Shown here one piece after another: positions 145 to 58,925 of a DNA stretch of 64,000 bases; within the stretch, counting starts at the first letter, position 1; every line of letters starts with the position of its first letter. Where the stretch lies: positions 12,134 through 76,133 of the forward strand of contig MGVA01000018.1 in assembly GCA_001800245.1 (NCBI GenBank). The letters run 5' to 3'. The notes below the pieces were generated by a model. It ran no database searches and had not been told where the DNA came from. It saw only the letters and a list, made by a program, of their open reading frames with translations. The stretch is from Elusimicrobia bacterium RIFOXYA12_FULL_51_18. Its GTDB lineage: Bacteria > Elusimicrobiota > Elusimicrobia > Elusimicrobiales > UBA9959. A program made the translations under genes and the position numbers.

Positions 145-1542
145 TTAGGCGGATCTGCCGCCCGCCGGTTTCAGCTTGGCGGTGAAATGCGCCAGGACTT
201 TCGGGGCTTCCACCACTTCAAGCCCCTTTATCGTTTTCTTTTTTTTCGCCAGCGCGCCCAACACCTCTATCACGTAGTCTATGTGGCTCTGCGTATAGAC
301 GCGCCGCGGCATGGCCAGGCGCACCAGTTCCATGGGCGCCGCCAGGAAATTATTTTTAGCGTCCCTGCGTCCGAACATCAGCGTGCCTATCTCTACGCCG
401 CGTATGCCGCCTTCCAGGTAAAGCGCGCAGGCCAGCGATTGCGCCGGAAAACGCTGCGGCTTCAGGTGCGGAAGGAATTTTCTGGCGTTAACATATACGC
501 CGTGCCCTCCGGGCGGATTTATGATCGGTACGCCGCGCTTCAGCAGTCCTTCGCCCAGATACTGCGCGGAGCGGATGCGGTATTGCAGATAATTTTCATC
601 GAGCACTTCACGCAGTCCTATGGCTATGGCTTCCAGATCCCGGCCGGCCAATCCGCCGTAGGTGTTGAAGCCCTCGGTCAGGATCAGCATCTGGCGGGCC
701 TTGGCCGACCAATCGCGGTTGTTCATAGCGAGGAACCCGCCGATATTGACCAGCGCGTCTTTTTTTGAACTCATCCAGGCGCCGTCCGCCAGTTCGAACA
801 TCTCCTGGGCTATCTCGCGTACCGGGCACTGCGCGTATCCCTTCTCGCGCAACTTTATAAAATACGCGTTTTCGGCGAAGCGGGCGCAGTCGAGGAAGAG
901 CGGGATGCCGTGTTTGCGGCACAGGTTTTGCGCGGCCTTGAGGTTTTCCATGGAGACCGGCTGGCCGCCCAGGGAATTATTGGTCACTGTCATTACGCAA
1001 AGGGGGATGTTTTTCGCTCCCTTTTCGTTTATAAACTTCTCCATGGCGGTTATGTCGGCGTTGCCTTTGAAAGGGGCTGGCTTGTCGAAGTCCAGCGCTT
1101 CTTTTACTGGGAAATCCACAGCCTGCGCTCCCGAAAATTCAACGTTGGCCCGGGTTGTATCGAAGTGAGAGTTTGAGATTATATATTTCCCCCTGCCTCC
1201 TATCACTCCAAAAAGTATTTTTTCCGCGGCGCGCCCTTGGTGAACGGGAATTATCTCCGCGAAACCGGTAAGGCCCTTTACCTCGCGTTCGAAAGTGTAG
1301 TAACTGCGGGCCCCGGCGTAGGATTCATCTCCGATCATGATGCCGCCCCACTGCGCCGCGCTCATCGCTCCCGTTCCGCTGTCGGTCAAAAGGTCTATCA
1401 GGACTTTTTCGGCTCTGATATTAAAAAGGTTATAGTGCGCCGCGTTCAGGATCTTGAGGCGCTCTTCCCGGGTGGTAAAGCCCAATGGCTCCACGCTCTT
1501 TATTTTAAAGGGTTCGATGATCGTTTTCCATTTCCAATCCAT
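145..1542 (-). CDS. tnaA: Tryptophanase / tyrosine phenol-lyase family beta-eliminating lyase (PLP-dependent)
   Basis: 465-aa ORF that aligns by eye over its full length with TnaA/TPL. Shared motifs are DLLTDSGTGAMS, ARFAENAYFIK, the PLP-lysine motif SSKKDALVNIGG, FPAQSLA and HFTAKLKP near the C-terminus. RBS GAGGAG lies 7 nt before the ATG. Confidence 0.9.
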   Translation of the reverse strand: MDWKWKTIIEPFKIKSVEPLGFTTREERLKILNAAHYNLFNIRAEKVLIDLLTDSGTGAMSAAQWGGIMIGDESYAGARSYYTFEREVKGLTGFAEIIPVHQGRAAEKILFGVIGGRGKYIISNSHFDTTRANVEFSGAQAVDFPVKEALDFDKPAPFKGNADITAMEKFINEKGAKNIPLCVMTVTNNSLGGQPVSMENLKAAQNLCRKHGIPLFLDCARFAENAYFIKLREKGYAQCPVREIAQEMFELADGAWMSSKKDALVNIGGFLAMNNRDWSAKARQMLILTEGFNTYGGLAGRDLEAIAIGLREVLDENYLQYRIRSAQYLGEGLLKRGVPIINPPGGHGVYVNARKFLPHLKPQRFPAQSLACALYLEGGIRGVEIGTLMFGRRDAKNNFLAAPMELVRLAMPRRVYTQSHIDYVIEVLGALAKKKKTIKGLEVVEAPKVLAHFTAKLKPAGGRSA

Positions 1543-1558: not shown

Positions 1559-1822
1559 GTCGCACCCCGCGCTTAACACATGCGCGGGGCGGATTCCCGC
1601 CGGGCCTTTAGCGGAAAGCGGCCCGGTGCTCCCGGAGGGGGATTCCATCCCCCTTCCGCGTTTGCTTCCTTCGCCAAGGCTCAGTCGCCACACTGAACCC
1701 CCTGCTGTGGAAATCTTCCGAATACTAAGGAATCAAATCTTCTTAGCTCTGTCGCACCCCGCGCTTAACACATGCGCGGGGCGGATGACGCCGGGCTTTA
1801 TTAAGGTGGCGCCCGGTGCTCC
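1559..1822 (-). repeat. Hairpin-rich intergenic element, copy 1 (candidate structured RNA or REP-like element)
   Basis: The 36-nt module GTCGCACCCCGCGC-ttaacacat-GCGCGGGGCGGAT occurs at 1559-1594 and 1751-1786, with a partial third unit at 1787-1822. The core is near-identical to the reverse complement of 21907-22130. Confidence 0.8.
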
Positions 1823-1850
1823 ACGCGGTGTAATAAGCCGGCGACTTCGT

Positions 1851-2900
1851 CTATTTTACAAATATAGTCATCAATATGAAATAGGCCAGCATGAGGAAGG
1901 TCCCGTAAGGCAGAGCGGCTTTCGCCCATTCGCCGGACTTTATTTTCAGCTTGGAGGCGCTTATTATATTCGGGATGTTACCGGGGATCAGCATGCCTCC
2001 GGAGATCAGCAGCCCCATAAGTACGAACTTGACCTGCTTGTCGGTCATGATCGGGACAAGTTCGGCCGCAGCCAGTGTGGCGTTGTCCAGGATGGCGGAT
2101 ATCGAATTGATCCAGTAAAGGGCCCATAGCGGCATCCCCGGGATAAAACGCTCTGCCAGCGGGGTAAGCCCGGCGCCCAGAAAAATAAGCGCCATGACGA
2201 AAAGATAGACCTTGCAGCCCCGTAAAAGGATGCTTAGTCTTGTTTCCAGCGCATCCTCTACAAGTCCGTGGCCGGAGGAGGCGGTCGGTCCGGCTCCGCG
2301 CGAGCCGAGGAAAGACGTTAATATTACTCCCGGAATTACCCAAAGTCCGATCTGGTTAAGCAGATAGAAAAAATCGGCGCTATGGGGGGGGGCTTTCAGT
2401 TTCGCCACAACTATTGTGGAGAGAGGTTCGCCTATGGGTGTGAGAGCGGCTCCCAGGCCTATGGCGTAGCAAGCGTAAACCACGATCCTGATCTCGCAGT
2501 TCCTTTCAAGTTTGAGAATGCTTATAACTTCGGCAAGCATCAGGGCGGAGATGATAGCCGTCATCAGGCTTGAGCCCAGACCGAGAAATAGTATGATAAT
2601 GAAGAGTGACCAGCGTAGCCCAAGTGCTTTTATCAGGCGCTCCAGCCACCCTTTCAACTTAGGACGCACGGCCCTGAACGCGAAACCCAGGACCAGTACC
2701 GCCAGCGTTATTTTTATCGGCTCAAGGAAAGCTTCTTTTATCAGCGCCAGGTTCCATAAACCGGAAATTGTGACCGCGGACAGGCCCATTATGAAAAGGA
2801 AAGCTTCCAGCTCTTCTTCCACTTTTTTTACGGAAAAAGGAAGGATCAGAGTGGATGCCATGATCGCCGCCAAGCCGGCTATTGTCAGGTATTCGTCCAT
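1851..2900 (-). CDS. Polytopic membrane protein, DUF1646-like predicted cation transporter
   Basis: 349-aa ORF with many hydrophobic helices. The family assignment is from memory of DUF1646-type sequences and is unverified. Confidence 0.6.
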   Translation of the reverse strand: MDEYLTIAGLAAIMASTLILPFSVKKVEEELEAFLFIMGLSAVTISGLWNLALIKEAFLEPIKITLAVLVLGFAFRAVRPKLKGWLERLIKALGLRWSLFIIILFLGLGSSLMTAIISALMLAEVISILKLERNCEIRIVVYACYAIGLGAALTPIGEPLSTIVVAKLKAPPHSADFFYLLNQIGLWVIPGVILTSFLGSRGAGPTASSGHGLVEDALETRLSILLRGCKVYLFVMALIFLGAGLTPLAERFIPGMPLWALYWINSISAILDNATLAAAELVPIMTDKQVKFVLMGLLISGGMLIPGNIPNIISASKLKIKSGEWAKAALPYGTFLMLAYFILMTIFVK

Positions 2901-3065
2901 GAATGTTTTTTGCGGCGTCCCTTACCGGGGATTTAAGTCCGGGTGCGGTGAGCCGTGTTGAATTTCGCGATGCGTATTATCCTGCCGCTTAAGCGGTTTG
3001 TTTATGTCTTACGGGCCATGAGTCCCGTAACGGCGCCTGCGCGGGTATTGTGCTACAATATTACT

Positions 3066-3235
3066 GAATAATCCGCTGGAAAACCTTTTTCGGGGTTTTG
3101 GGCCGGTTTTTGTCTGTGGCTTTGCGTTGCTTAACTCTCGGTTCTCTTAAAGAATATGTGTTTTGCATCGCCTTGGTTCGGCTTCAAAATCCGCTCAAAA
3201 TACCTCGGAGCGGGGTTTCCCGGAGGACCGCTGAA
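3066..3235. repeat. MITE-like repeat, family B, degenerate copy B1
   Basis: It shares the core ...ggcttcaaaatccgctcaaaatacctc... and flanking modules with 4245-4413. The terminal inverted repeats are imperfect. Confidence 0.6.
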
Positions 3236-3271
3236 CATAGTAATTCTATAACTTTTAGGATGTAAAAGAAA

Positions 3272-4192
3272 ATGAATAGATTGACAGGGCCGGTGGGCCT
3301 CTTTCTCTGCGGCGGCGGCGCTTTAGGCAGCTGGCAGTCCGGGGTCCTGTCCAGGCTCGTCGCGGGCGGCCTGGAATTCGACGCCGTCGCTGGTTTCAGC
3401 GTCGGGTCGCTCAACGGCGCGGCCTATTGCTACAACAAGACCGGTGAACTGCGCGCCATCTGGTCCGGCCTTAAGCCGGAACGGATCCTCTCAGTGCGGC
3501 CGGGCTATCATAACATTCCGCTGGAATTATATCAGCACCACAAACCGGGTTTTTTTTCAAAGATAGGTTTTCTGTTCCAGAAGCACGCTTCGCGGATGTA
3601 TCTCTTCTCAAACAAGCCGGTCTATGACTTCCTGAATTCCTGGCTTTCAAAGACGGACGTTAATTTCAACCGTAAAATAAATTTTTATGTCATCAGCCAC
3701 GCGGTGGAGATGAAGCTCCCTTATATCGTCAAGTTCGACGGCGGCGCTCAGAGCCATAATCTCTCTTTTGTGGATTCGTTGGTCGCAAGTTGCGCCATCC
3801 CCACCATTTTCCCACCGGTGGAAGTCACCGAGCACGGCCGTACTTACCATCTGGTGGACGGCGGAGTTATAGGAATAGCGAATATAAACCTCAATATTTT
3901 TGAAGGCTGCAAAACCATTGTTATGATCGGCAATTCCAGGGAAGAGGATGTGAATTTCCCGTCGGTCGGGGCTTTCGGATATTTCGAGTCAAGAGCCAGG
4001 AGGATGCTTGCCGTGCACACGCAGAAGATCTATGAGTCGCGCATCTTTGTTAAATCCGAACCGATAGTGCATTATATCAAGCCGCCCGCGGACCTGAACC
4101 TTGGCATCCTGGAGTTTGACGGAGTAAAATGTTCGCGCGCGTTCGATGCCGGCGAACGGGAAGCCGAACGCTGGATGTCGCGGCTTGAATAA
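3272..4192 (+). CDS. Patatin-like phospholipase
   Basis: Oxyanion motif CGGGALG, nucleophile elbow GFSVGS (GxSxG) and the catalytic Asp motif VDGG are all present in a 306-aa ORF. Confidence 0.85.
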   Translation: MNRLTGPVGLFLCGGGALGSWQSGVLSRLVAGGLEFDAVAGFSVGSLNGAAYCYNKTGELRAIWSGLKPERILSVRPGYHNIPLELYQHHKPGFFSKIGFLFQKHASRMYLFSNKPVYDFLNSWLSKTDVNFNRKINFYVISHAVEMKLPYIVKFDGGAQSHNLSFVDSLVASCAIPTIFPPVEVTEHGRTYHLVDGGVIGIANINLNIFEGCKTIVMIGNSREEDVNFPSVGAFGYFESRARRMLAVHTQKIYESRIFVKSEPIVHYIKPPADLNLGILEFDGVKCSRAFDAGEREAERWMSRLE

Positions 4193-4244
4193 CTTATGTG
4201 AGGTTCAATAGCAACGTGTTGACGTGCAAGCGCAGGCAATTATT

Positions 4245-4413
4245 AGCAGTCTGCTGAAAAACCCTCTTTCGGGGTCTTTTGGCTGATTTTTGCCTGCGCC
4301 TTTGCGCTGCTCAACTCACAGTCCCTGGTCGAGAATGCTCGTTTCGCATCGCTTAGGCTCGGCTTCAAAATCCGCTCAAAATACCTCCGAGTAGGGTTTG
4401 TCAGCAGACTGTT
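4245..4413. mobile_element. MITE-like non-autonomous element, family B, copy B2
   Basis: The ~21-bp terminal inverted repeats are agcagtctgctgaaaaaccct and agggtttgtcagcagactgtt. The core is shared with 3066-3235 and 57682-57900. It contains no ORF. Confidence 0.7.
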
Positions 4414-6992: not shown

Positions 6993-8270
6993 TTATGATT
7001 TTATGAAGAATAGCGCGGGAAAGTAGGTTACCAAGGCCAGCACTCCCAGCAGGATAAACCAGAAATTCATGGTCGCCAGATAGAGTTCCGGCAGTTTTTT
7101 GTCGAACCTGGAACTGGAAAGGAAAAGATTCAGGCCCAGCGGCGGGGTCATGTAGCCGATCTCAAGGTTCAGAAGGAAGATGATGCCGAGATGGATGGGG
7201 TCGATGCCGTAGTTCATGGCCACCGGCACGATTATGGGCACAACTATTATAATAGCGGAGAAGATCTCCACCATGTTGATGACCAGCAGAAAAGCGTTCA
7301 GGATCACCAGAAAAAGCACTTTGCTGGATACGAACGAATGCAGTAAGGCGAAGATCCTGTCCGGTATCTGCGCGTCGATCAGGTAATTGGTGAAGCCCAG
7401 GGCGGTTCCCAGCACCACGAAGATCGCCCCGACCAGCATCATGCTTTTCACAGCGATTTTTGGTATATCCCGGAACAGATCTAATTCCCTGTAAATAAAC
7501 ACTTCCGTTATCAGCACGTAGAAGGCCATGATGGAGGCGGCTTCGCTGGCCGTGAAAAGCCCTTTATAAATGCCGCCTATCACTATGAAAGGAAGCGGGA
7601 GCTGCCAGGCTGTTTCTCTGACCGCGCTTTTTAATTCCGCCCAGGAGAAGGGCTGCTTTTTAATGCCGGCTTTTTTCGCCGTGACAAGCGCGTAAACCGA
7701 CAAGACCGCCAAAAGGAAGATTCCCGGCAGCAGCGCGGCTTTAAAAAGCGCGTCTATGCTTATTTTCGCGATGAGGCCGTAAAGTATTATAGGCAGGCTG
7801 GGGGGGAAGAGCAGGCCAAGGCTGCCGGTTGTGGTAAGCAGGCCCAGCGTGAATTTTTCCGGGTAGCCCTGCTTGGTCAGCATCGGGTAGAGGAGTCCGC
7901 CGAGAGCGATGATAGTCACTCCTGAGGCGCCCGTGAAAGCGGTGAAGATGGCGGTGGCCACCAGCGCGGCGATAGCCATGCCTCCAGGCAGAGAGCCGAA
8001 TAGCGCCGAGCCGAGCTTAAGCATTCGTTTCGGGGAATTGCTCTCCGCCAGCACATAGCCGGCGAAGGTGAAAAGGGGAATGGCGATCAGGGCGGGAAGG
8101 CTTGCCAGTCGAAGCATTTCCACGATGACCGCAGAGGAGTCTATGTCCGCCGCGCCGAAAAGATAAAGAGCCCCGGCGCCGATTAGCGAAAAGACCGGGG
8201 CGCCCAGGAAGGCCAGCGCGAAAATTAGGACGGCGATGAATATGCCCATAAATTGAAAGTAATCAAGCAA
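6993..8270 (-). CDS. dctM: TRAP transporter large permease
   Basis: 425-aa polytopic ORF in the operon order dctP-dctQ-dctM. Confidence 0.9.
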   Translation of the reverse strand: MLDYFQFMGIFIAVLIFALAFLGAPVFSLIGAGALYLFGAADIDSSAVIVEMLRLASLPALIAIPLFTFAGYVLAESNSPKRMLKLGSALFGSLPGGMAIAALVATAIFTAFTGASGVTIIALGGLLYPMLTKQGYPEKFTLGLLTTTGSLGLLFPPSLPIILYGLIAKISIDALFKAALLPGIFLLAVLSVYALVTAKKAGIKKQPFSWAELKSAVRETAWQLPLPFIVIGGIYKGLFTASEAASIMAFYVLITEVFIYRELDLFRDIPKIAVKSMMLVGAIFVVLGTALGFTNYLIDAQIPDRIFALLHSFVSSKVLFLVILNAFLLVINMVEIFSAIIIVVPIIVPVAMNYGIDPIHLGIIFLLNLEIGYMTPPLGLNLFLSSSRFDKKLPELYLATMNFWFILLGVLALVTYFPALFFIKS

Positions 8271-21899: not shown

Positions 21900-21906
21900 A
21901 GCGGTC

Positions 21907-22130
21907 ATCCGCCCCGCGCATGTGTTTAGCGCGGGGTGCGACAGGATTGGGATCTGACTCCTTAGTATTCGGGAGATTTCTACAGCAGGGGGTTCAGTGC
22001 GGCGACTGAGCCTTAGCGAAGGAAGCAAACGCGGAAGGGGGACGGAGTCCCCCTCCGGGAGCACCGGACCGATTACCTTAAGAGGTCCGGCGTCGTCCGC
22101 CCCGCGCATGTGTTTAGCGCGGGGTGCGAC
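21907..22130 (+). repeat. Hairpin-rich intergenic element, copy 2 (candidate structured RNA or REP-like element)
   Basis: The 36-nt module ATCCGCCCCGCGC-atgtgttta-GCGCGGGGTGCGAC occurs at 21907-21942 and 22095-22130 and brackets a ~150-nt core containing further hairpins. The element fills the whole gap between cluster genes 4 and 5. Confidence 0.8.
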
Positions 22131-22146
22131 AAAGGCGGGAGGTTGT

Positions 22147-23826
22147 ATGGGAAATAAATTTATAGAACAACACAAGCGAAAGTCCCTGCTTGCCTCGCTC
22201 CTGTTTATGTTCGCGGGCCGGGCCAAATATGTTGTCATAGTTCTGCTTGTTGCGGTTGCCTCCCTGCCTTTTGTGGTTTCAGCCGAAATGGCCGCGAGGT
22301 TTTTTGAGATGCCGCCGGTGGCGGCCGCGCTCCGGATGGTGGGCCTGGGCAGTGTAGTCTCCTCCCTCAACCCAACATATTCCCGCGAATTCGTAAAAGC
22401 GGCCATAGACAAGGCCGCGGCGGATAATAGCGCGCAAGCCTCTTACTGGAGCAGACTTATGGGGGCGGTCCTTCCGTTTGGGACAAGATCCGGCGGAGAC
22501 TCTTCGCTGGCTATGGTAAAGGGCGGAGCGGAAATATTTAAGGGAGGGGCCAGCCGTCCCGGCAAGGTGAAAAGTGCGGTCAGCGTGGAGGATCAGGCCC
22601 GCGGAGAGGGAGCCGATACGGTGGACCTGGATGGCATATTAAACAATCCGGCCGGCGCCGATGGCCGCGGACTTTACGGTGACTTAATGGGAGATAGTTT
22701 GGCGGGCAGGTATTCTTCCGGGGAGAGTGCCGGACCATATGCCGATAAAAACCTGGTCTCCCAGCCCGGAGGTTCGGTCAGCCGCGTGGAAAGTTTATAT
22801 TCCAGCTCTTTTATCAAGGCGAACGACAGAGTTCCGGTGCCCGCCAAGCCCCAGAAGCTCAAAACAAAAATGATGGGCCGCGCTTCCGGATTTTCCTGGA
22901 AAAATGTCGGATATAAGACGAGAAACGCCAAAATGGATGTCAGGCTTAACAGCAAACGACCGATGTTCCAGCTGGCTGAAACTTTCGGCATGACCAGTTC
23001 CGCTTCCCGTGACAAGAATACGGCCCCTGAGTACCAGGCCGCATATACCGGTACCACCTACGACGGCAACGCGGTGAATCTTAATGTGATCCAGACCGAC
23101 GATACCCCGCCGTCTGTTCCCGACACCGGTTTCGCCGGCGACTCGATAAACGGCGCCGCCGACATTCAGCAACGGGCGGAGGACTGCGCGAAGTCGCAGT
23201 CCGTTCAGGGCGCTAAAATGTCCAGCGACGGCGCGGAGATCGACAGGATAACTTTACAGTGGCGAACTCCGCCCAATTGTTACGATGATATCGGTCCGTG
23301 GAATGAAAGCGTGGCCCAGCGGTCAAGATTATGCCGTGATTTTAATAAAAACCAGACTATTCTTGCGGGCGCATGCCAGACCAGCAATACTCCTATGGAC
23401 TGCGGTATATATGAACGGGGTACGAATGCCAACGGCATGATCATAAGCAAATGTAAAAAGCCGAAAGGGAAAGGCAATTTGTTAGCGATGCTGATAGCTA
23501 TTGTCGTGCTTGTGATTCTTGTTCTTACTGGTATCCTCACCCCCTTGATAGCATTTATCGCGGCCATACTTGCGTATATAGCATCTTCCATGCTTGGCGG
23601 TGGCGGAGGTGGTGGAGACAGTGATTCTAAGTATCAGGACAAAACCATGACGGATGGTGATGCCGCGCATGGCGGTGATGCGGGTGGCGATGGTAAAGAT
23701 AGTGATGACAAGGACAAAGACGACGATAAAGACGATGAGGACAAAGGCGACAAGGAAAATGACAAAAACAGTGATGATAACGGCGATGAGGATAGTAACA
23801 ATAACGATAAATTCAAGAAAAAATAG
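22147..23826 (+). CDS. Cluster protein 5: N-terminal TM anchor, disordered region, 6-Cys module, two C-terminal TM helices, poly-Gly and a D/K-rich acidic tail
   Basis: RBS GGGAGG lies before the ATG at 22147. The ORF-track start at 21997 runs through the repeat element and is unlikely. The tail reads GGGGGGGDSDSKYQDK...DDKDKDDDKDDEDKGDKENDK. Confidence 0.7.
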   Translation: MGNKFIEQHKRKSLLASLLFMFAGRAKYVVIVLLVAVASLPFVVSAEMAARFFEMPPVAAALRMVGLGSVVSSLNPTYSREFVKAAIDKAAADNSAQASYWSRLMGAVLPFGTRSGGDSSLAMVKGGAEIFKGGASRPGKVKSAVSVEDQARGEGADTVDLDGILNNPAGADGRGLYGDLMGDSLAGRYSSGESAGPYADKNLVSQPGGSVSRVESLYSSSFIKANDRVPVPAKPQKLKTKMMGRASGFSWKNVGYKTRNAKMDVRLNSKRPMFQLAETFGMTSSASRDKNTAPEYQAAYTGTTYDGNAVNLNVIQTDDTPPSVPDTGFAGDSINGAADIQQRAEDCAKSQSVQGAKMSSDGAEIDRITLQWRTPPNCYDDIGPWNESVAQRSRLCRDFNKNQTILAGACQTSNTPMDCGIYERGTNANGMIISKCKKPKGKGNLLAMLIAIVVLVILVLTGILTPLIAFIAAILAYIASSMLGGGGGGGDSDSKYQDKTMTDGDAAHGGDAGGDGKDSDDKDKDDDKDDEDKGDKENDKNSDDNGDEDSNNNDKFKKK

Positions 23827-23896: not shown

Positions 23897-23935
23897 GTGT
23901 ATCAGGGCGTCTTTTACAGATTTTCAGGAGGTTCT

Positions 23936-26518
23936 ATGAGCAATAACAACGAGGAAGAAAAGCGCGAAGGAACTCCCCCGATTTTGGGCAAGCCGGGAGC
24001 TTCTTTCAAAAAGATTTCCACTTTCGGGAGGTCGCCCGCTTTCTCCAGGGCGGCCGGGAGCCTTATGGATAGGATTAAAAATCTTTCCAAAAAAGACCTG
24101 GCTTTTGTAGCTGTCGGCCTGGGTGTTCTAGTTACGGCGCCTGTGGCCGAGTATATGATGTCTAAACCCGCGGGCGCAGATCTGCTTACGGGAGGTTTCG
24201 GTTCGCGCGCGGAGGCCGGCGGTTCTCTCTACGAACCTGGCATCAACTCTCTAAGCCAGGGTTCTCCGGACGGCACTGGCGAAGTGGTCACGCCTTTAAG
24301 CTCAAGGGACCCCGCGTCCCTGATCATGGGGTCACAGCCTTCCCAGCCTCCGGAAATGCCTCCCCAGCAGCCGGCGCCAAAGACGGACTTCCGGGATTCC
24401 ATGAAGGAATCCGCCCGCAACGCTTTTTCCGAGGCTTCCAAATCCGCCGGCGTTCCCACTGTTATTCCCAGGATGCAGAGTTCGCTCAGAGGCATGGGTT
24501 CTTTTTTTAGCGGCGGTGAAGGCACCAGGACCACCGGCTCTTTAGGCGGTGATAAAATACTCAGTAGCGCCAAAAACGCATCCGGTAAGGCCAATCCGCG
24601 TTCCATGGTGGGCCCCGTGGGAGGCGCCGGGTATAAAGGAGCGTCTTCCAGCCCTAACAGCGCCAGTAAAGGATCTTTAGATAAACTGCGCGCGCAGGCC
24701 AGTAAAGCGGCGAGCAATTTTGATGGCGACAGTTCCATCCGTTCCCTTGATAAAGCCGCGGCTGATTCCGTGGATATCGGGAAAAGTCTCGGCGGCATGA
24801 GCGGGCGTGACGGCGAAAAATACGCGAACCCCACAGGTTCCAACATCAGCGACAAGAGAAGCTTGGGCGGGGAGACTTTGGAGCAGGCCGCTGCCAAGTT
24901 CAGGCAGCAGAAACAGCAGGAATGGGACGAGTATTTAAAGCACGGTATATTAAAAGAGATCACCACGGCCATGGTTAGCGGTTTCACCGGTTCGCTCGGT
25001 AAGTTTATCGGCGGAGTGGCGGACGATCTTACCGGCCAGACCCCGGGCCCCGCTCCCGCCAGTTACTGTTGGTCGCCCAAGGTGAAGCCTAATTCCACCG
25101 ATACGAACGATTGTCTTAAAGGCGTTTTGAAAACGCCCCTCTTCAAAGATAAGGACGGGAAGATAACTTGGAACCCCAATTTTAGTTGCATATGCGGTAT
25201 AGGCGGGGCTCCTGATATCGGTCCGGATGCGGCAGCGGCAGAAGCCGAAGAAATCGTTAACGGAGCCGAAGCCTCCCACGTTTCCATGGCGCTGCCAGAC
25301 ACGGTTCCGGACGGTTATGTGGAAACAATAAAGAATTATGACCAGGCTCTTACCGATATGGCGTTTAACGCCAGGAATGGAGAGAAGGCGTCGGACCCCA
25401 AAATACTTTTGAAATATGTAAAAGCGTTGGGTGACAGCCTGTACAAGTGCTCAAGCCTTGCACAGGTGGTGTATAAAGATGTCAACGTCAAGACCCCGGC
25501 GCTTGTTAATGCGGAAAAGGTTTCCTACCATACCGCCATACTTACGGCGGAAACGAAATTAGCCGGGGTTAGAAATAAATATGACGCTTTCATAGGTAAA
25601 GTGGCTTCGGAAATAGGCAAGTATGAAAGCGGCGCCAAAACGGCCCAGGTGGGGGACGCCGAAGTTGTTCAGGCGGGTAACGGGGTTACTCCGGTGGCGG
25701 TCCTTAAAGCGGTAAAGGCTGAGGCGGAGGACTATCAGAACGGTTCAATAGTCGTGGCTGAGAATAAACTGAAGTTCCATAAGCAAGCCGAGATATTCTA
25801 TGCCGAGCAGTCGGTTTTAATAACCGATAAAGCCGGTAATATGGTTAACGAGGTATCCAAAACTAACGGCAAAGTGGCGGAACTTGTTAAGTTGGAGGGG
25901 ATAACCCCGGATACGGCGGTGCTTCCGGATAATGCGGCTAAAATTAAGGAAACTTTCGCCAGACTTACGGGGCTGAAAGACTCTATCCCTACGGCGCCGC
26001 CCGCCGCTAATTCAGCGCAAGTTGTTCCGGCGGCGCCTAAAGCTCCGGCAACCGGCGAGTCCGATCCGTACATATCCGCGGCCATCAACTGGCGCGGCGC
26101 TGATCCTGATAAGTTGTTGAATAATAATATGGTGGATGACAGCGGTGTTAAAAAAACGGAAAGCGAGTATTGGGCGCCCCTCAGTCCGTTCAAACGTCTT
26201 GAGTCCAGAAAAATAGACGGAGGGTTAAGCCCCGCCGGCGAGATCGGTTCTGATTACGTCACCCTCTCCATACGCGGCGTGCAGGCTCTGCCGTACGACA
26301 TAAAGAGCGCCAATGGCTTGACCGCGGAGATAATGGAGGGAATGGATCAGTTGGATTCCAAAATCGCGGGGTGGAAAACACAGCTCAATGATATCGGCGT
26401 TTCCTTGGATCCGGCGGGCGTAAAACCCTCCGATGCCGCGCAGGTCTCCGGCGGCGGGCAGATCGCCGCCGGACAGGTTGCCGGCGGGCAGATCGCCGCC
26501 GGACCAAAGCCGGAATAG
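23936..26518 (+). CDS. Cluster protein 6: N-terminal TM anchor, S/G/P-rich disordered region, small Cys module, large helical C-terminal domain
   Basis: RBS GGAGG lies 5 nt before the ATG at 23936; the ORF is open from a GTG at 23897. The TM helix is LAFVAVGLGVLVTAPVAEYMM. The product is about 860 aa. I recognise no family. Confidence 0.75.
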   Translation: MSNNNEEEKREGTPPILGKPGASFKKISTFGRSPAFSRAAGSLMDRIKNLSKKDLAFVAVGLGVLVTAPVAEYMMSKPAGADLLTGGFGSRAEAGGSLYEPGINSLSQGSPDGTGEVVTPLSSRDPASLIMGSQPSQPPEMPPQQPAPKTDFRDSMKESARNAFSEASKSAGVPTVIPRMQSSLRGMGSFFSGGEGTRTTGSLGGDKILSSAKNASGKANPRSMVGPVGGAGYKGASSSPNSASKGSLDKLRAQASKAASNFDGDSSIRSLDKAAADSVDIGKSLGGMSGRDGEKYANPTGSNISDKRSLGGETLEQAAAKFRQQKQQEWDEYLKHGILKEITTAMVSGFTGSLGKFIGGVADDLTGQTPGPAPASYCWSPKVKPNSTDTNDCLKGVLKTPLFKDKDGKITWNPNFSCICGIGGAPDIGPDAAAAEAEEIVNGAEASHVSMALPDTVPDGYVETIKNYDQALTDMAFNARNGEKASDPKILLKYVKALGDSLYKCSSLAQVVYKDVNVKTPALVNAEKVSYHTAILTAETKLAGVRNKYDAFIGKVASEIGKYESGAKTAQVGDAEVVQAGNGVTPVAVLKAVKAEAEDYQNGSIVVAENKLKFHKQAEIFYAEQSVLITDKAGNMVNEVSKTNGKVAELVKLEGITPDTAVLPDNAAKIKETFARLTGLKDSIPTAPPAANSAQVVPAAPKAPATGESDPYISAAINWRGADPDKLLNNNMVDDSGVKKTESEYWAPLSPFKRLESRKIDGGLSPAGEIGSDYVTLSIRGVQALPYDIKSANGLTAEIMEGMDQLDSKIAGWKTQLNDIGVSLDPAGVKPSDAAQVSGGGQIAAGQVAGGQIAAGPKPE

Positions 26519-43582: not shown

Positions 43583-43605
43583 GGGAAGCTAATTGCATGA
43601 GCTGA

Positions 43606-43640
43606 AGGCTGAAGGTATTTCCTTCAGCCTTTGCCTTTTC
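43606..43640 (+). terminator. Terminator hairpin after mvhA
   Basis: The stem is AGGCTGAAGG-tattt-CCTTCAGCCT, followed by ttgccttttc. Confidence 0.6.
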
Positions 43641-43670
43641 CGGGTAGGCGGGGTGGTGTTGGCTCGAACA

Positions 43671-43869
43671 GGCGGTGACGTGTTCCCTGTCCGTTCCGGG
43701 ACCGGGTTTTCCGGGGAAGAAGCCCGGTGTTTTACGCCGGCTGTGGAACGCGCCGGACCGACATAGCGGTCCGGCTTGACCGGTCCTCGCCGTCCCTAAT
43801 GACAGGGATTCGCTCCAGACACCGGGCTTAAAACCCTTGAATGGAACGGACAGGGAACCCGCCCCCGCC
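43671..43869. mobile_element. MITE-like element E
   Basis: The terminal inverted repeats are ...gttccctgtccgttcc (43682-43697) and ggaacggacagggaac (43843-43858), with weaker similarity extending ~10 nt outward. It contains no ORF. Confidence 0.6.
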
Positions 43870-43978
43870 CTTGTGTATCGGGTAAAAATAGTTGTATGTA
43901 ATCTTAAGTTATAGATTATTTTTCATTGATAAAGGTTTAAATAGTAATATTCATTCAATTTTAGGTTAAAGTAAATTT

Positions 43979-49831: not shown

Positions 49832-50165
49832 ATCACGCGTCCTTTCAACGCTTTACATTTACCGCTGAATCCAATACCCGCGCGGATATTGCGTTTCTTT
49901 ACTCTACCCAAAAACCAACGCCCGTGCGGATGCCGCGGCAGTGTCTATGCCCAACAAGCGGCTCTTTGGATATTATACGAAAACTTGTCGTTCTTATAAC
50001 ACGACACTACGCTGTCGGGGTCGTTGTCTATAATATCCATAAATATACTATACGCCTTATGCTAAAGGGGGGAATGAGCGTTGTTGTATATCGGGAGCTT
50101 TTCGAAGCGGAGGGCGGCGCGGCGACTGAGCTTTTACAAAGGCACTAAATGCGGAAGGGGGGTAT

Positions 50166-50834
50166 ATGACACATGACATAATGGAAATGGAAAAGTTGGA
50201 GCGGCCCAGGGAAAAACTGATGCGCTACGGTCCCGACAAGCTCTCGGACACAGAACTGCTGGCCATATTGCTGCGTACTGGCACAAAAGAACGCGGGGTA
50301 TTGGATCTGGCGGGGGATATCCTGGGCGAGTTCCGGCGGGAAAATATCACCAACGCCGGTTTTGACGGCCTTAAGAAGCATCCGGGGCTGGGGCCGGCTA
50401 AAGCGTGCGAGATCGTGGCGGCTTTTGAATTGGGCCGGCGGTTCTTCACGGGTAAGAAGACCAATATTTATCTGAAGCCGAGCGATGTTTGGGACGAACT
50501 TAAGGACATAAGGGAAAATAAAAAAGAGCACTTTGTCACCTTTCATCTGGATACGCGCAACCAGGAGATAAAAAGGGATATAGTCTCCATCGGAACGCTT
50601 AACTATAATCTGGTCCACCCGCGCGAGGTGTTTGAACCGGCCATAAGGAACCTGGCTGCGGGCATAATCCTGGCGCATAATCATCCCTCAGGCTGCCTTG
50701 AACCTTCCGATGAGGACCTGAGTCTTAACAAGCGCCTGGTGCAGGCCGGCAAACTACTGGGTATTGAGGTGCTGGACCACGTGATAGTGACTAAGGCGGC
50801 ATTCTCCAGCTTTAAACAGAGGAACCTGATGTAA
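50166..50834 (+). CDS. radC: RadC-like JAB/MPN domain protein
   Basis: An N-terminal HhH region is followed by the JAMM motif AHNHPSG...PSDED. Confidence 0.88.
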   Translation: MTHDIMEMEKLERPREKLMRYGPDKLSDTELLAILLRTGTKERGVLDLAGDILGEFRRENITNAGFDGLKKHPGLGPAKACEIVAAFELGRRFFTGKKTNIYLKPSDVWDELKDIRENKKEHFVTFHLDTRNQEIKRDIVSIGTLNYNLVHPREVFEPAIRNLAAGIILAHNHPSGCLEPSDEDLSLNKRLVQAGKLLGIEVLDHVIVTKAAFSSFKQRNLM

Positions 50835-50872: not shown

Positions 50873-51199
50873 CTATTGAGCCTCACATAAATAATGTCCG
50901 CGCTGGCCGGGCCGATTTTGGGGCGAAATAAGGAACTCGGAGCGCAGCATAGCTGGGCTATGTAAGCGACGCGTGACGCAGTTGCAGCCCAAAAGTGCCC
51001 GGCCCTTTCCCATCAGGGAAAGGGAGGCTTGCCTTTGGCCGTTTGATACGCATAGCGTCTGTCACGGCACTACCATAGGCTTGAGCGACTGCTTCGTTGC
51101 TCCTCGCTCACAGACCAACGGTCTGCTCGTTCGTTGCTCCTCGCATTCATCTCAAATCCAAGCCTCCAACCCGGACATTATTTATGTGAGACTCAATAG
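50873..51199. mobile_element. MITE-like element D (327 bp)
   Basis: The 28-bp terminal inverted repeats are ctattgagcctcacataaataatgtccg and cggacattatttatgtgagactcaatag, with one mismatch. There is no credible ORF. Confidence 0.8.
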
Positions 51200-51244
51200 A
51201 CGCTTTTTAAAAGAGGAGACTGGCAAAATGGTAATATTATAAAT

Positions 51245-54872: not shown

Positions 54873-55120
54873 GAGGCACATAGGCCGTCTGATGGCCATA
54901 GGCCCTGATGCGGCACCTACGCAATGCCGTTTGACGGGCATCGCCCTTGTTACGGCACAGCCATAGGCTGGTATTGGCGGTACCCCCTCCTGGGGATTGA
55001 ACCACAGGTGGGCACCGCTACAGCGGTTCCCCCTACGTCTGAGGCACACAGGCCGTTTGATGGCCATAGGCCTTGTTACGGCACTGCCATAGGCTAGTGC
55101 TTTGTTACGGCACCTACGCA
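54873..55120. repeat. Mosaic block of short direct repeats sharing modules with MITE families B and D
   Basis: gaggcaca(t/c)aggccgt(c/t)tgatggccataggcc occurs twice. gttacggcac(a/t)gccataggct occurs twice. The module ccacaggtgg(g/a)caccgc...gcggtt(c)cccctac is shared with 57751-57784. Confidence 0.7.
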
Positions 55121-57537: not shown

Positions 57538-57681
57538 CTTGAAGTCGCGGCTGAAGCGTTTTTATCGGAAGAGCTGCGGGTAAACGGCGATTTTCGGGTC
57601 TTATGACGGCGGTAACCAGAGGGCTTGTAGATGAATGTTTATGCCGCCGGGGATGAAATATGAATCTTTTGCGAGGGGGTA

Positions 57682-57900
57682 GGAGCCTGTCCGACATAAG
57701 GAATTTTGGCTGCAATTGCCGTTTTTTGCGGGACCCTTTCCGGGATTTACCCACAGGTGGACACCGCATTGCGGTTTCCCCTACTGCGCCTTTGCGCCGC
57801 TCAACTTACAGTCTCCGTAGAGAATGCTCGTTTCGCGTCGCTTCGGCTCGGCCTCAAAACCGACAATTTCGCTTTAAAAAACTTATGTCGGACAGGCTCC
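57682..57900. mobile_element. MITE-like element, family B, copy B3 (219 bp)
   Basis: Perfect 19-bp terminal inverted repeats ggagcctgtccgacataag and cttatgtcggacaggctcc. The core gcgcctttgcgccgctcaacttacagtc...gagaatgctcgtttcgc is shared with 3066-3235 and 4245-4413. Confidence 0.85.
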
Positions 57901-57995
57901 TGGATTAACGGCTATTTTTGATAGAATTATATTATATGGTGTTTCATTGGGTCCGCGGTAAAACCGGCAGCGTGGAGGGTGGAGGATATTAAAGT

Positions 57996-58886
57996 ATGAA
58001 AATGATAAAAAGGGTTTCACTTTTTTTAGCCGTCAATCTGCTTATACTGATTACGCTGTCCATAACGCTGAATATCCTGGGAGTGAGGCCTTATCTCAGT
58101 GCGCGCGGCATGGACTATCAGGCTTTGATGGTTTTCTGCCTTGTCTGGGGCATGGGGGGGGCTTTTATCTCTCTTGGCCTTTCCCGTATCATGGCCAAGT
58201 GGATGATGGGTGTTAAAGTTATCGATCCCGGCGTCGGCGAACCGGAACTGGCCCGGCTGGTCCAGACCGTTCACAGCCTGGCCCGGGCCGCAAATCTCCC
58301 CAGAATGCCGGAGGTTGGGTATTATCCCAGTCCCGAGATCAACGCTTTTGCGACCGGTCCGACAAAAAGCCGGGCGCTTGTGGCGGTTTCCACCGGCCTG
58401 TTGGAAGCTTTGGACAGGGAACAGCTGGAAGGCGTGTTGGCGCACGAGATAGCTCACATCGCCAACGGAGATATGGTCACCATGACCTTATTGCAGGGTA
58501 TTATCAACGCTTTTGTGATGTTCCTGGCCCGTGTGATCTCTTTCTTTATCGCCAACCGCGGTCGCGACGATGAGAGTGCCGCTCCAAGCTTCCTGCTGAC
58601 CATGGTTCTTGAAATCGCGCTCAGCGCGCTGGGTATGGTGGTGGTGGCGGCTTTTTCCCGCTTCAGGGAGTTCCGGGCGGATGCGGGAGGCGCCGGACTC
58701 GCCGGCCGGGAGAAGATGATCTCAGCCCTTGAGGCGCTTAAACGGAGTCTCCCTTATGTTGACCTTACCGGCAAGCAAGCTGTGGCCGCTCTTAAGATAT
58801 CCGGCAGATCAGGAGGGGTGATGGCGCTGTTCGCCACCCATCCCGCGCTTGACGAGCGCATAGCCCGCCTCAGAGAGTCGCGTTAG
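57996..58886 (+). CDS. htpX: Zinc metalloprotease HtpX (M48)
   Basis: HEIAHIANGD (HExxH), four TM helices and a C-terminal THPALDERI. Confidence 0.9.
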   Translation: MKMIKRVSLFLAVNLLILITLSITLNILGVRPYLSARGMDYQALMVFCLVWGMGGAFISLGLSRIMAKWMMGVKVIDPGVGEPELARLVQTVHSLARAANLPRMPEVGYYPSPEINAFATGPTKSRALVAVSTGLLEALDREQLEGVLAHEIAHIANGDMVTMTLLQGIINAFVMFLARVISFFIANRGRDDESAAPSFLLTMVLEIALSALGMVVVAAFSRFREFRADAGGAGLAGREKMISALEALKRSLPYVDLTGKQAVAALKISGRSGGVMALFATHPALDERIARLRESR

Positions 58887-58925
58887 GAGCCTGTCCGATA
58901 TAAGCAATTTTGGCATGCAACCTCG
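58886..58925. repeat. Partial family-B repeat (left end only)
   Basis: ggagcctgtccgatataagcaattttggc matches the left terminus of 57682-57900. Similarity decays further downstream. Confidence 0.6.

Follow-up and report, generated by a model that had tools for sequence, protein, structure and literature searches.

A low-copy family of structured intergenic repeats, best read as new, at operon junctions in Elusimicrobia

The spacer between two genes (gene 4 and gene 5) of Elusimicrobia bacterium RIFOXYA12_FULL_51_18 is filled by a hairpin-rich element, and the question raised by this locus is what kind of sequence the element is. We analysed 64,000 nucleotides (nt) of contig MGVA01000018.1 (positions 12,134 to 76,133), hereafter the window, in which the element occupies positions 21907-22130 of the plus strand. 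An initial annotation made from the sequence alone had offered three readings: a structured RNA, a REP-like repeat or a single-stranded DNA (ssDNA) mobile element. The first two stand, the REP-like repeat in a broad sense, whereas the third is disfavoured by the orientation of the copies and by the lack of a target in their left flanks. The element is best read as a member of a new, undescribed low-copy family of dispersed structured intergenic repeats, and we lean, if only somewhat, towards the view that it is a co-transcribed structured repeat that acts in cis on mRNA.

The element (c2, plus strand) and a second one at 1559-1822 (c1, minus strand) are two copies of one unit of about 190 nt. 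The initial annotation was right in all coordinates and sequences of both copies and of their 36-nt modules, and it saw the element as a 224-nt unit bracketed by two modules. The module, here called hairpin B (ATCCGCCCCGCGC-9 nt-GCGCGGGGTGCGAC), is found at 21907-21942 and 22095-22130 (+) in c2, with a spacing of 188 nt and 1 mismatch in 40, and at 1555-1594 and 1747-1786 (-) in c1, where the spacing is 192 nt and the pair is 100% identical. Given this spacing, each element is a head-to-tail repeat of a ~190-nt unit rather than a bracketed one, i.e. the unit is 188-192 nt long, c2 comprises about 1.2 and c1 about 1.4 units, and the preceding unit has left a 3' tail of 40 nt in c2 and one of about 80 nt in c1. 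The hairpin B pattern has four true sites in the 64 kb versus 0.01 expected by chance, all of them inside elements. The two copies share 87.7% identity over 228 nt (blastn) and, exactly as annotated, each stops 16 nt ahead of an ATG (22147 and 1542, respectively). The gene downstream of c2 is gene 5, which encodes an unannotated 559-amino acid (aa) protein (22147-23826); downstream of c1 lies a gene for a beta-eliminating lyase, tnaA-like according to Pfam (145-1542, minus strand). Moreover, the window contains a third, partial copy (c3), where only two had been counted. It is located at 50086-50163 (+) in the 5' leader of radC (50166-50834; Pfam RadC), extends from the 3' arm of P1 into the 5' arm of P3 (hairpins described below) and was recovered with 74% identity over 78 nt (blastn) and an nhmmer E-value of 4e-7. 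The radC RNA motif was ruled out as an explanation of c3, a match in Rfam being absent.

Each unit can be described as a succession of five hairpins, P1 to P5, where P4 is also called hairpin A and P5 is the right-hand hairpin B (Table 1). The predicted fold of c2 has a free energy of -122.4 kcal/mol (z = -4.3 versus shuffles), compared with -100.1 kcal/mol for the antisense strand. The stems GGTTCAGT/ACTGAGCC, GGGGGAC/GTCCCCC and CCGGACC/GGTCCGG are present as claimed in the initial annotation, and the compensatory differences that it listed between the two copies (GAC/GTC versus GAT/ATC, and CCGGACC/GGTCCGG versus CCGGGCC/GGCCCGG) are real. What had been taken for a small GGAA/TTCC hairpin is better assigned to two stems, as the P1 3' arm plus the P2 5' arm, and the 13-nt loops differ at only 6 of the 13 positions, so that calling them almost entirely different was too strong.

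Covariation was counted on 13 aligned units, and the additional copies do covary. Standard pairs occupy 94.8% of the cells, as opposed to 39-55% if the partners are slid by 1-3 columns. Both sides have changed in 7 pairs and 20 cells, values that were reached by 3/500 and 0/500 shuffles, respectively. These double changes are located in P3, P4 and inner P5; the changes in P1 and P2 are only from G.U to G-C or A-U. Two replacements are of a larger kind: at L004 the P1 hairpin is swapped for an unrelated one, TCAAT-tga-ATTGA, in the identical position, and at L032 the P5 stem is longer by two pairs, each of its arms carrying the insertion (CCCCGATCGC/GCGATCGGGG). G.U pairs outnumber A.C pairs 73:15, the sense strand is the more stable one in 13/13 units (by 9.2 kcal/mol on average), and the substitutions are concentrated in the loops. 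Judged from this alignment, the sense-strand fold has been kept by selection. A pairing of the P4 loop with the Shine-Dalgarno sequence or with the core was also looked for, and no partner was consistent among the copies.

The rate of change was compared with that of the neighbouring sequence. The orthologous copies at L030 and L016 are 91.8% identical, versus 74-83% at the four-fold sites of the flanking genes and 84.6% in the adjacent non-repeat spacer, and the 3' part of the copy at L026 is 93% identical to c2, versus 81-82% at four-fold sites. In other words, four-fold sites change about three times faster than the orthologous copies do. The element is non-coding, in line with the argument of the initial annotation: stops occur in all three sense frames in at least one copy, and the indels are not multiples of three (a single T is absent inside the core at L002 and L004, and the long form has a 55-nt insert). 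In c2, ATGTGTTTA takes the place of ATGTGTTAA in the loop of the right hairpin B; one stop is thereby lost, and a frame stays open from GTG 21997 across the element into gene 5 (to 23826), giving 609 aa versus the real 559 aa. The element is an annotation trap also elsewhere, as spurious ORFs of 62 aa (P0101) and 75 aa (P0100) have been called over other copies.

Further copies were sought by an exact-pattern scan of two invariant core motifs and by look-ups around homologues of the neighbouring proteins, which together gave 11 independent loci in related Elusimicrobia metagenome-assembled genomes (MAGs) and metagenomes. The scan found true copies in two Elusimicrobia MAGs (L002 and L004) and in seven JGI metagenome contigs; the look-ups added L026, L030/31 and L032/33. 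Two of the four genome matches and six of the 13 metagenome matches of the scan were rejected as chance (L001, L003, L006, L008, L013-15 and L017; by eye and by blastn). The family spans lineages whose neighbouring proteins are only 55-80% identical.

None of the collections searched contained a described relative. Rfam 15 gave zero matches to the whole window at the gathering score and, at E<=10, only chance sub-threshold matches to c1, c2, c3 and the long form of L032 (Scr4115, 23 bits; Pxr, 20 bits), the best of which has 23 bits versus a gathering score of 58; the view that the element belongs to no Rfam family thus holds. It was absent from 72,556 plasmids and 50,697 phage records (blastn, distant mode). 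In IMG/VR the P4 pattern had 0 matches, and a relaxed hairpin B pattern had 10, all of which were chance matches in GC-rich sequence by eye, with the element absent. A 70-aa open frame spanning the unit was searched against 5.8 billion proteins and matched only two mis-called ORFs, which led to L030/31. Finally, a covariance model of the 13 units (R1) run over 207 kb found no further full copies, and one weak 16-bit match at 43666-43814. We also found no described non-coding RNA or repeat family of Elusimicrobia in Rfam or in the literature searched. With so few matches in the plasmid, phage, IMG/VR and protein sets, the family is, as far as sampled, rare and restricted to a clade of groundwater Elusimicrobia.

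The weak match at 43666-43814 is a different hairpin-rich spacer. This spacer of about 230 nt (43630-43870) lies behind a gene for the large subunit of a NiFe-hydrogenase and a canonical terminator (~43600-43640), and contains a 40-nt inverted repeat (43671-43710/43830-43869) and an internal hairpin, CCGGACCG-acatag-CGGTCCGG, that resembles hairpin A.

It is apparent from the placement of the copies that they follow the direction of transcription. Where the downstream gene is readable, 10/10 copies are in the sense orientation with respect to it, and eight also have a co-directional gene upstream. At 8 of the 11 loci the element ends 11-21 nt ahead of a start codon and at one it ends 5 nt ahead of a tRNA, the exceptions being L032 and the unreadable L002. 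Copies occupy the few bases from a stop codon to the next Shine-Dalgarno sequence, 5' leaders or, once, the position in front of a tRNA. Of the two points that the initial annotation proposed to check in further copies, the sense orientation holds wherever it can be read, and proximity to a ribosome-binding site (RBS) is not universal, since the copy at L010 precedes a tRNA and that at L032 lies 215 nt upstream of the next gene. The neighbouring genes form unrelated pairs, i.e. DUF1646/lyase, two membrane proteins, DUF1634/NTP-transferase, radical-SAM-like/methyltransferase (the former label being based on a C-terminal motif, by eye), Dxs/LOG-like, MotB/lipoprotein and oxidoreductase/GreA-like, besides radC. 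At L010, where the mature 5' end of tRNA-Pro (+) follows the element at a distance of 5 nt, genes for a large serine recombinase and a tRNA-Gln (-) are found directly upstream of the element and the tRNA-Pro (2288-4267); this is the only recombinase near any copy and probably marks the edge of an integrated element.

The comparison of orthologous sites shows that the copies are insertions, polymorphic between relatives. The DUF1646/tnaA spacer has 308 nt in the window, where it is filled, and 30 and 28 nt at L044 and L045, where it is empty and TnaA is 91% and 93% identical to that of the window, respectively. The aligned spacers have in common the first ~20 nt past the stop and an AGGAG-spacer-ATG segment, with the element in between; its flanks read ...cttatta on the left and GGAGccc on the right, and a target duplication is absent. 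Likewise, the gene 4/gene 5 spacer has 12 nt and is empty in the GWA2_56_46 lineage (L027-29; L027 reads TAAgctGGAGaacgtATG). The DUF1634/NTP-transferase spacer is filled at L004 and empty in the window, the enzyme being 80% identical. Since the RBS and the ATG are already in place in the empty sites, the Shine-Dalgarno sequence belongs to the host. Moreover, an operon junction of 12-30 nt tolerates insertion only between the stop and the Shine-Dalgarno sequence, and this alone accounts for an element end so close to the RBS.

No sense-strand promoter-like or terminator-like site was found inside or around c2. The sense strand of c1 has two weak promoter-like sites (9/12), both within the flanking coding sequences. 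None of the scanned copies contains a sigma-70-like site, and the scan called no terminator on the sense strand of c1, c2 or their surroundings. Behind hairpin B comes GCGACAGAG and no U-tract, i.e. it does not have the make-up of an intrinsic terminator; a canonical U-tract terminator is found elsewhere in the window (~43600-43640). Given that promoters are absent from the scanned copies and sense terminators from c1 and c2, co-transcription with the host operon is plausible.

On balance, the chances are slightly on the side of a structured repeat that would be transcribed with its operon and would act in cis as a processing, stability or insulator module. The arrangement of a hairpin past the stop, an A/U-rich linker and two hairpins before the Shine-Dalgarno sequence fits such a module. 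An endonuclease could cut in the linker AGAGAUAAGAAGAUUUGA, which is the sole A/U-rich unpaired stretch of the unit, or in the core; the left hairpin B would then shield the upstream cistron at its 3' end. P4 and P5 stop 6-8 nt short of the Shine-Dalgarno sequence; they would guard the downstream cistron at its 5' end and screen it from the sequence upstream. We hold this specific scheme of cleavage and protection with less confidence than the role in cis as such.

Several observations weigh against a function in cis. The 13 units are closely related (effective number 1.21), and P1, P2 and P5 are in large part unchanged among them or vary on one side only. The slow divergence could in part be due to gene conversion, as c2 and the copy at L026 have different cores at one site. 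The Shine-Dalgarno-adjacent position may reflect only the tolerance of tight operons to insertion, and the sense-only orientation may reflect selection against terminator-like hairpins on the antisense strand. c3, in which the P3 sequence GGAAGGGGGG occupies the exact expected Shine-Dalgarno position of radC, looks like a decaying remnant. At L032, finally, the spacer is 675 nt long, terminator-like hairpins precede the element and the next gene lies 215 nt beyond it; this copy is easier to see as a stand-alone RNA than as an intercistronic module.

A stand-alone RNA is the alternative that survives best, and we nevertheless consider it unlikely. According to this reading the element is functional in its own right, as a trans-acting small RNA (sRNA), a protein-binding RNA or a new self-cleaving ribozyme, and is hosted in, and excised from, operons and leaders. 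The multi-hairpin fold with the invariant unpaired motifs GGTTCAG, CGAC and GGAGCA would agree with it, as would the copy at L032, where terminator-like hairpins stand in front of the element and a promoter-like TTGACA-17-TATTAA after it (the latter by eye; the scanner did not call it). A long form of about 240 nt, found at L016 and L032, carries an optional structured domain of about 55 nt in the P3 loop, and two types of core (I and II) occur between common ends. Tandem arrangement and the lack of a gene association are also typical of small ribozymes. Yet most copies have no promoter of their own, a U-tract terminator is missing, and no ribozyme or sRNA family of Rfam 15 matched at E<=10. 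Moreover, c3 and the truncated left units show decay, and the type II core loses the P2 pairing of type I.

Ranking just behind it, and likewise improbable in our judgement, is a relic or non-autonomous derivative of an ssDNA transposon, either a PATE of the IS200/IS605 type or a REP/RAYT system, in which the two hairpins B would be end hairpins and the fold would serve mobility. Most copies have near-identical direct hairpins at both ends, the structure is strand-specific (G.T wobbles form in ssDNA, too), polymorphic insertion without target duplication is typical of IS200/IS605, and tandem units, as in the two full units of L007, would be possible if the right end recreates the target. Of the criteria for MITEs (miniature inverted-repeat transposable elements), the small size, the several copies and the presence/absence between relatives apply, whereas target duplications and terminal inverted repeats (TIRs) are lacking; hairpin B is instead repeated at the ends in direct orientation, with a unit truncated to a variable extent on the left. 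The right end is always exact (...GGTGCGAC, usually with AGAG next), and all copies found have a complete P5. On the left, the ends are ragged: hairpins A and B are whole in c1, hairpin B and a piece of the linker are present in c2, L007, L011, L016 and L030, half of hairpin B is left at L026, a degenerate trace at L012 and nothing at L002. In other words, the left hairpin is truncated or absent at L002, L012 and L026 and the unit is still conserved, which argues against a transposon end. The left flanks are unrelated and contain no common target tetranucleotide. A solo hairpin B was absent in the ~200 kb searched, P1-P4 are internal and covary although they are not needed for end recognition, and the loop of the left hairpin B can carry an optional stem with a GAAA tetraloop cap (a 42-nt insert at L010 and L011, with GTGC/GCAC in one and GCGC/GCGC in the other). 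The orientation tracks gene direction rather than GC skew: the skew is positive over the whole window, yet c1 (-) and c2 (+) are opposed (n=2 copies), so orientation follows transcription, not replication. As to the enzymes, no transposase, reverse transcriptase, TnpB, TnpA, RAYT or IS110 was found in the window or beside any copy, the check covering ~45 long window ORFs scanned directly for Pfam domains, the 5.8-16 kb stretch of the window by way of precomputed Pfam matches of syntenic loci, the neighbours of the other copies and up to 10 kb of flanking sequence to either side. A known insertion sequence (IS) end, which the initial annotation had named as evidence against its proposal, is thus not present near the copies, nor is a transposase.

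We give slightly less credit still to the idea that the element is functionless debris, i.e. a GC-rich hairpin segment that was copied by illegitimate recombination, homogenised by gene conversion and kept where harmless. The ragged 5' ends, the decayed c3, the low copy number and the mere two called ORFs among 5.8 billion proteins would be expected, and tolerance alone can explain the placement. The cores, too, are swapped between orthologous copies. At the gene 4/gene 5 site the closest relative is L026, where the product of gene 5 has 89% identity; the 3' part of its copy is like c2, with a private GTCGTCC linker in common, and the central ~85 nt differ from c2 and form a type II core, nearly the same in sequence as the second L007 unit and as the left, truncated unit in c1. 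By eye, a single substitution and a 1-nt indel set the latter apart from the 3' part of the L007 type II unit. The two core types have identical ends, and such mosaics suggest that copies have recombined or undergone gene conversion with one another. It is difficult to reconcile with debris, however, that compensatory changes and paired indels preserve the stems, that substitutions are concentrated in loops, that orthologous copies change at about a third of the four-fold rate, and that the element persists across the divergent lineages mentioned above.

As to how the element spreads, the precise 3' end, the ragged 5' ends and the tandem partial units suggest copying or recombination anchored at the 3' end, which would be followed by gene conversion among copies; cut-and-paste transposition would not be involved. 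A bolder version, for which we see only a slim chance, is a mobile functional RNA: a self-cleaving or protein-recruiting module that would cut polycistronic transcripts into separately stabilised units and would have spread by 3'-anchored RNA-templated or rolling-type copying. Such copying would explain the GCGAC 3' end, the ragged 5' partial units, the tandem arrays and the lack of target duplications.

A gene-specific cis-regulator of tnaA and gene 5 (riboswitch, attenuator or leader peptide) can practically be dismissed, for although c1 and c2 are both structured and directly upstream of a Shine-Dalgarno sequence, the genes that follow bear no relation to one another (tryptophanase-like lyase, membrane protein, NTP-transferase, methyltransferase, LOG-like, GreA-like, tRNA-Pro), a conserved small ORF and an Rfam match are both absent, and the idea is contradicted by the empty orthologous sites, i.e. 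by the absence of the element upstream of tnaA orthologues of 91-93% identity. Other identities were rejected as well. A CRISPR array does not fit, as there are only two hairpins B per locus, the 150-nt 'spacer' is itself conserved and cas domains are absent. The hairpin B loop GTTAAGC would fit the GTTRRRY of an integron attC site, but c2 has GTTTAGC and there is no inverse core site (by eye). Likenesses to the signal recognition particle RNA (GAAGGAAGCA), the hammerhead (CUGANGA) and a T-loop (GGUUCAG) are not supported by Rfam.

The anatomy of the two larger copies is collected in Table 1. The left tail of c2 begins 1 nt past the TAA of gene 4 and is in part matched by the covariance model R1 (21902-21941); similar ragged left remnants are found in other copies. 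P2 contains the invariant GGTTCAG and CGAC, and its G.U pairs are G-C at L016. At L007 the TAA of the upstream radical-SAM-like gene lies within the conserved GGCGGGTAATGCGCC linker of the element (7039-7043, locus coordinates), so the repeat supplies the last residues and the stop of that gene.

Table 1. Features of copies c2 and c1 and their positions in the window.
Feature	Position	Strand	Remarks
5'-truncated tail of preceding unit (c2)	21900..21942	+	Linker remnant agcggtc and left hairpin B, ATCCGCCCCGCGC-atgtgttta-GCGCGGGGTGCGAC
Purine/AU-rich single-stranded linker	21943..21957	+	Consensus AGAGAUAAGAAGAUUUGA; opens the unit; from alignment, unpaired in minimum free energy folds
P1 hairpin	21958..21975	+	CTCCT-tagtattc-GGGAG; 90.8% of cells paired; changes one-sided (wobble) only
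P2 long hairpin	21977..22025	+	TTTCT..GC..GGGGTTCAGT-gcggcg-ACTGAGCCTT..GC..GGAAG; from fold and alignment
P3 hairpin	22032..22057	+	CGGAaGGGGGAC-gga-GTCCCCCTCCG; five pairs changed on both sides (helices 4 and 5)
Joiner P3-P4	22058..22063	+	GGAGCA; invariant in 13/13 aligned units, type II cores included
P4 (hairpin A)	22064..22090	+	CCGGACC-13 nt loop-GGTCCGG; 100% paired; A-U/G-C covariation in 4/13 units; loop variable
P5 (right hairpin B)	22096..22130	+	12-bp stem with one G.U pair and one bulge; exact 3' end of element, ..GGTGCGAC
Shine-Dalgarno sequence and ATG of gene 5	22137..22149	+	GGGAGG; host sequence, outside the repeat
Full 192-nt unit of c1 (P1-P5)	1559..1750	-	Covariance model R1, 219 bits
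5'-truncated preceding unit of c1 (hairpin A' and hairpin B)	1751..1832	-	nhmmer model positions 109-192

The window contains other repeats. A second, unrelated family of about 105-130 nt has copies at 3114-3218, 4294-4399 and 57784-57900, with the invariant blocks CTGCGCCTTTGCGC..GAGAATGCTCGTTTCGCATCGCTT.GGCTCGGCTTCAAAA. All three copies are in the sense orientation just upstream of genes (patatin-like, 3272; TauE, 4432; M48 peptidase, 57996) and have no Rfam match; they may represent a shared leader or promoter module. One of them is carried by the divergent spacer (2901-3271) of the DUF1646 gene (1851-2900, minus strand), upstream of which neither the DUF1646 nor the nhaA-I Na+ riboswitch motif of Rfam was matched. 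The M48 peptidase gene is bracketed by 31-nt repeats, TAGGAGCCTGTCCGAYATAAG.AATTTTGGC, in direct and inverted orientation (57680-57710, 57882-57901 and 58884-58914), which suggests a small cassette-like unit. A 47-nt repeat, GCCGTTTGATGGCCATAGGCCTTGTTACGGCACTGCCATAGGCTAGT, is present in four copies (51038-51084, 54884-54972, 55052-55098), three of which are clustered at ~54.9-55.1 kb near TPR and CsgG-like genes. Between radC and a gene for a FIST-domain adenylate/guanylate cyclase, a small ORF (50973-51242) is bracketed by a 34-nt inverted repeat (50873-50906/51166-51199, 91% complementary). Finally, an exact duplication of 23 nt (26452-26474/26482-26504, 30 nt apart) is found at the 3' end of an 873-aa gene (23897-26518).

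Elusimicrobia are almost wholly uncultured. The element presents a clean candidate for study in this phylum, i.e. an apparently undescribed, covarying five-hairpin RNA of about 190-240 nt with naturally filled and empty sites at operon junctions in front of an RBS. If it were catalytic or copied through RNA, it would represent a new kind of bacterial mobile RNA.

Among known systems, the IS200/IS605 PATEs and the omega RNAs of TnpB/IscB resemble the element in having subterminal hairpins of one strand at both ends, no target duplication and a structured non-coding part of about 150-250 nt. The element differs from them in that there is no transposase or nuclease gene at the 11 loci, its orientation is tied to transcription, its left end is ragged and it has no Rfam match at E<=10; Rfam includes the HEARO and IS605-orfB motifs. 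REPs are present in hundreds of copies, often solo or as inverted pairs, and are linked to RAYT transposases, and ERIC occurs in both orientations. Compared with REPs, the element is larger, with five hairpins in a 190-nt module, exists in few copies and lacks solo hairpins. It nevertheless shares with REP and ERIC the GC-rich imperfect palindromes (hairpin B is REP-sized) and the intercistronic, transcribed sites. REPs are 21-65 base pairs (bp) long, and ERIC is a MITE of about 127 bp with TIRs (PMC3184786). According to work cited in the same review, REP/BIME (PU) and ERIC of enterobacteria alter the stability of mRNAs and the segmental decay of operon transcripts (Higgins 1982, Stern 1988, De Gregorio 2005), an action of the kind proposed here.

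Like MIRU, the element is intercistronic, can be in tandem and has empty and filled orthologous sites. It has no small overlapping ORFs and no tetranucleotide direct repeats, and it is not of the MIRU length. We know of no strict sense or Shine-Dalgarno-proximal placement for bcr1, the repeat of the Bacillus cereus group, which is MITE-like with flanking direct repeats of 5 bp, unlike the element with its lack of target duplication. MIRU are co-transcribed intercistronic repeats of 40-100 bp that occur in tandem and at empty or filled orthologous sites, with small ORFs overlapping the neighbouring stop and start and with tetranucleotide direct repeats (PMC3184786). bcr1 is about 155 bp long, dispersed with a non-conserved distribution, transcribed, and shows compensatory changes of base pairs (PMC3184786).

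The REP2 repeats of Neisseria and the IR-A/IR-B repeats of Borrelia are 120-180 bp in length and of low to moderate copy number, lack TIRs, form RNA stem-loops and are located in the sense orientation right upstream of ORFs, like transplanted 5' untranslated regions (PMC3184786). The element, likewise, is without TIRs, stem-looped, in the sense orientation and immediately upstream of ORFs. REP2, however, brings its own promoter, RBS and ATG, whereas the element uses the Shine-Dalgarno sequence and ATG of the host and has no promoter-like site in the scanned copies; it also occurs inside operons, before a tRNA, with partial tandem units and in a different phylum. No resemblance to REP2 was seen, as judged from the description in the review and not from the sequence. 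In kind, the element is closest to REP2/Borrelia IR, bcr1 and REP/BIME/ERIC/MIRU and is a member of none of them. If its role in mRNA processing or stability is true, it would be a natural cistron insulator and a further recruited repeat beside REP, ERIC, REP2 and bcr1.

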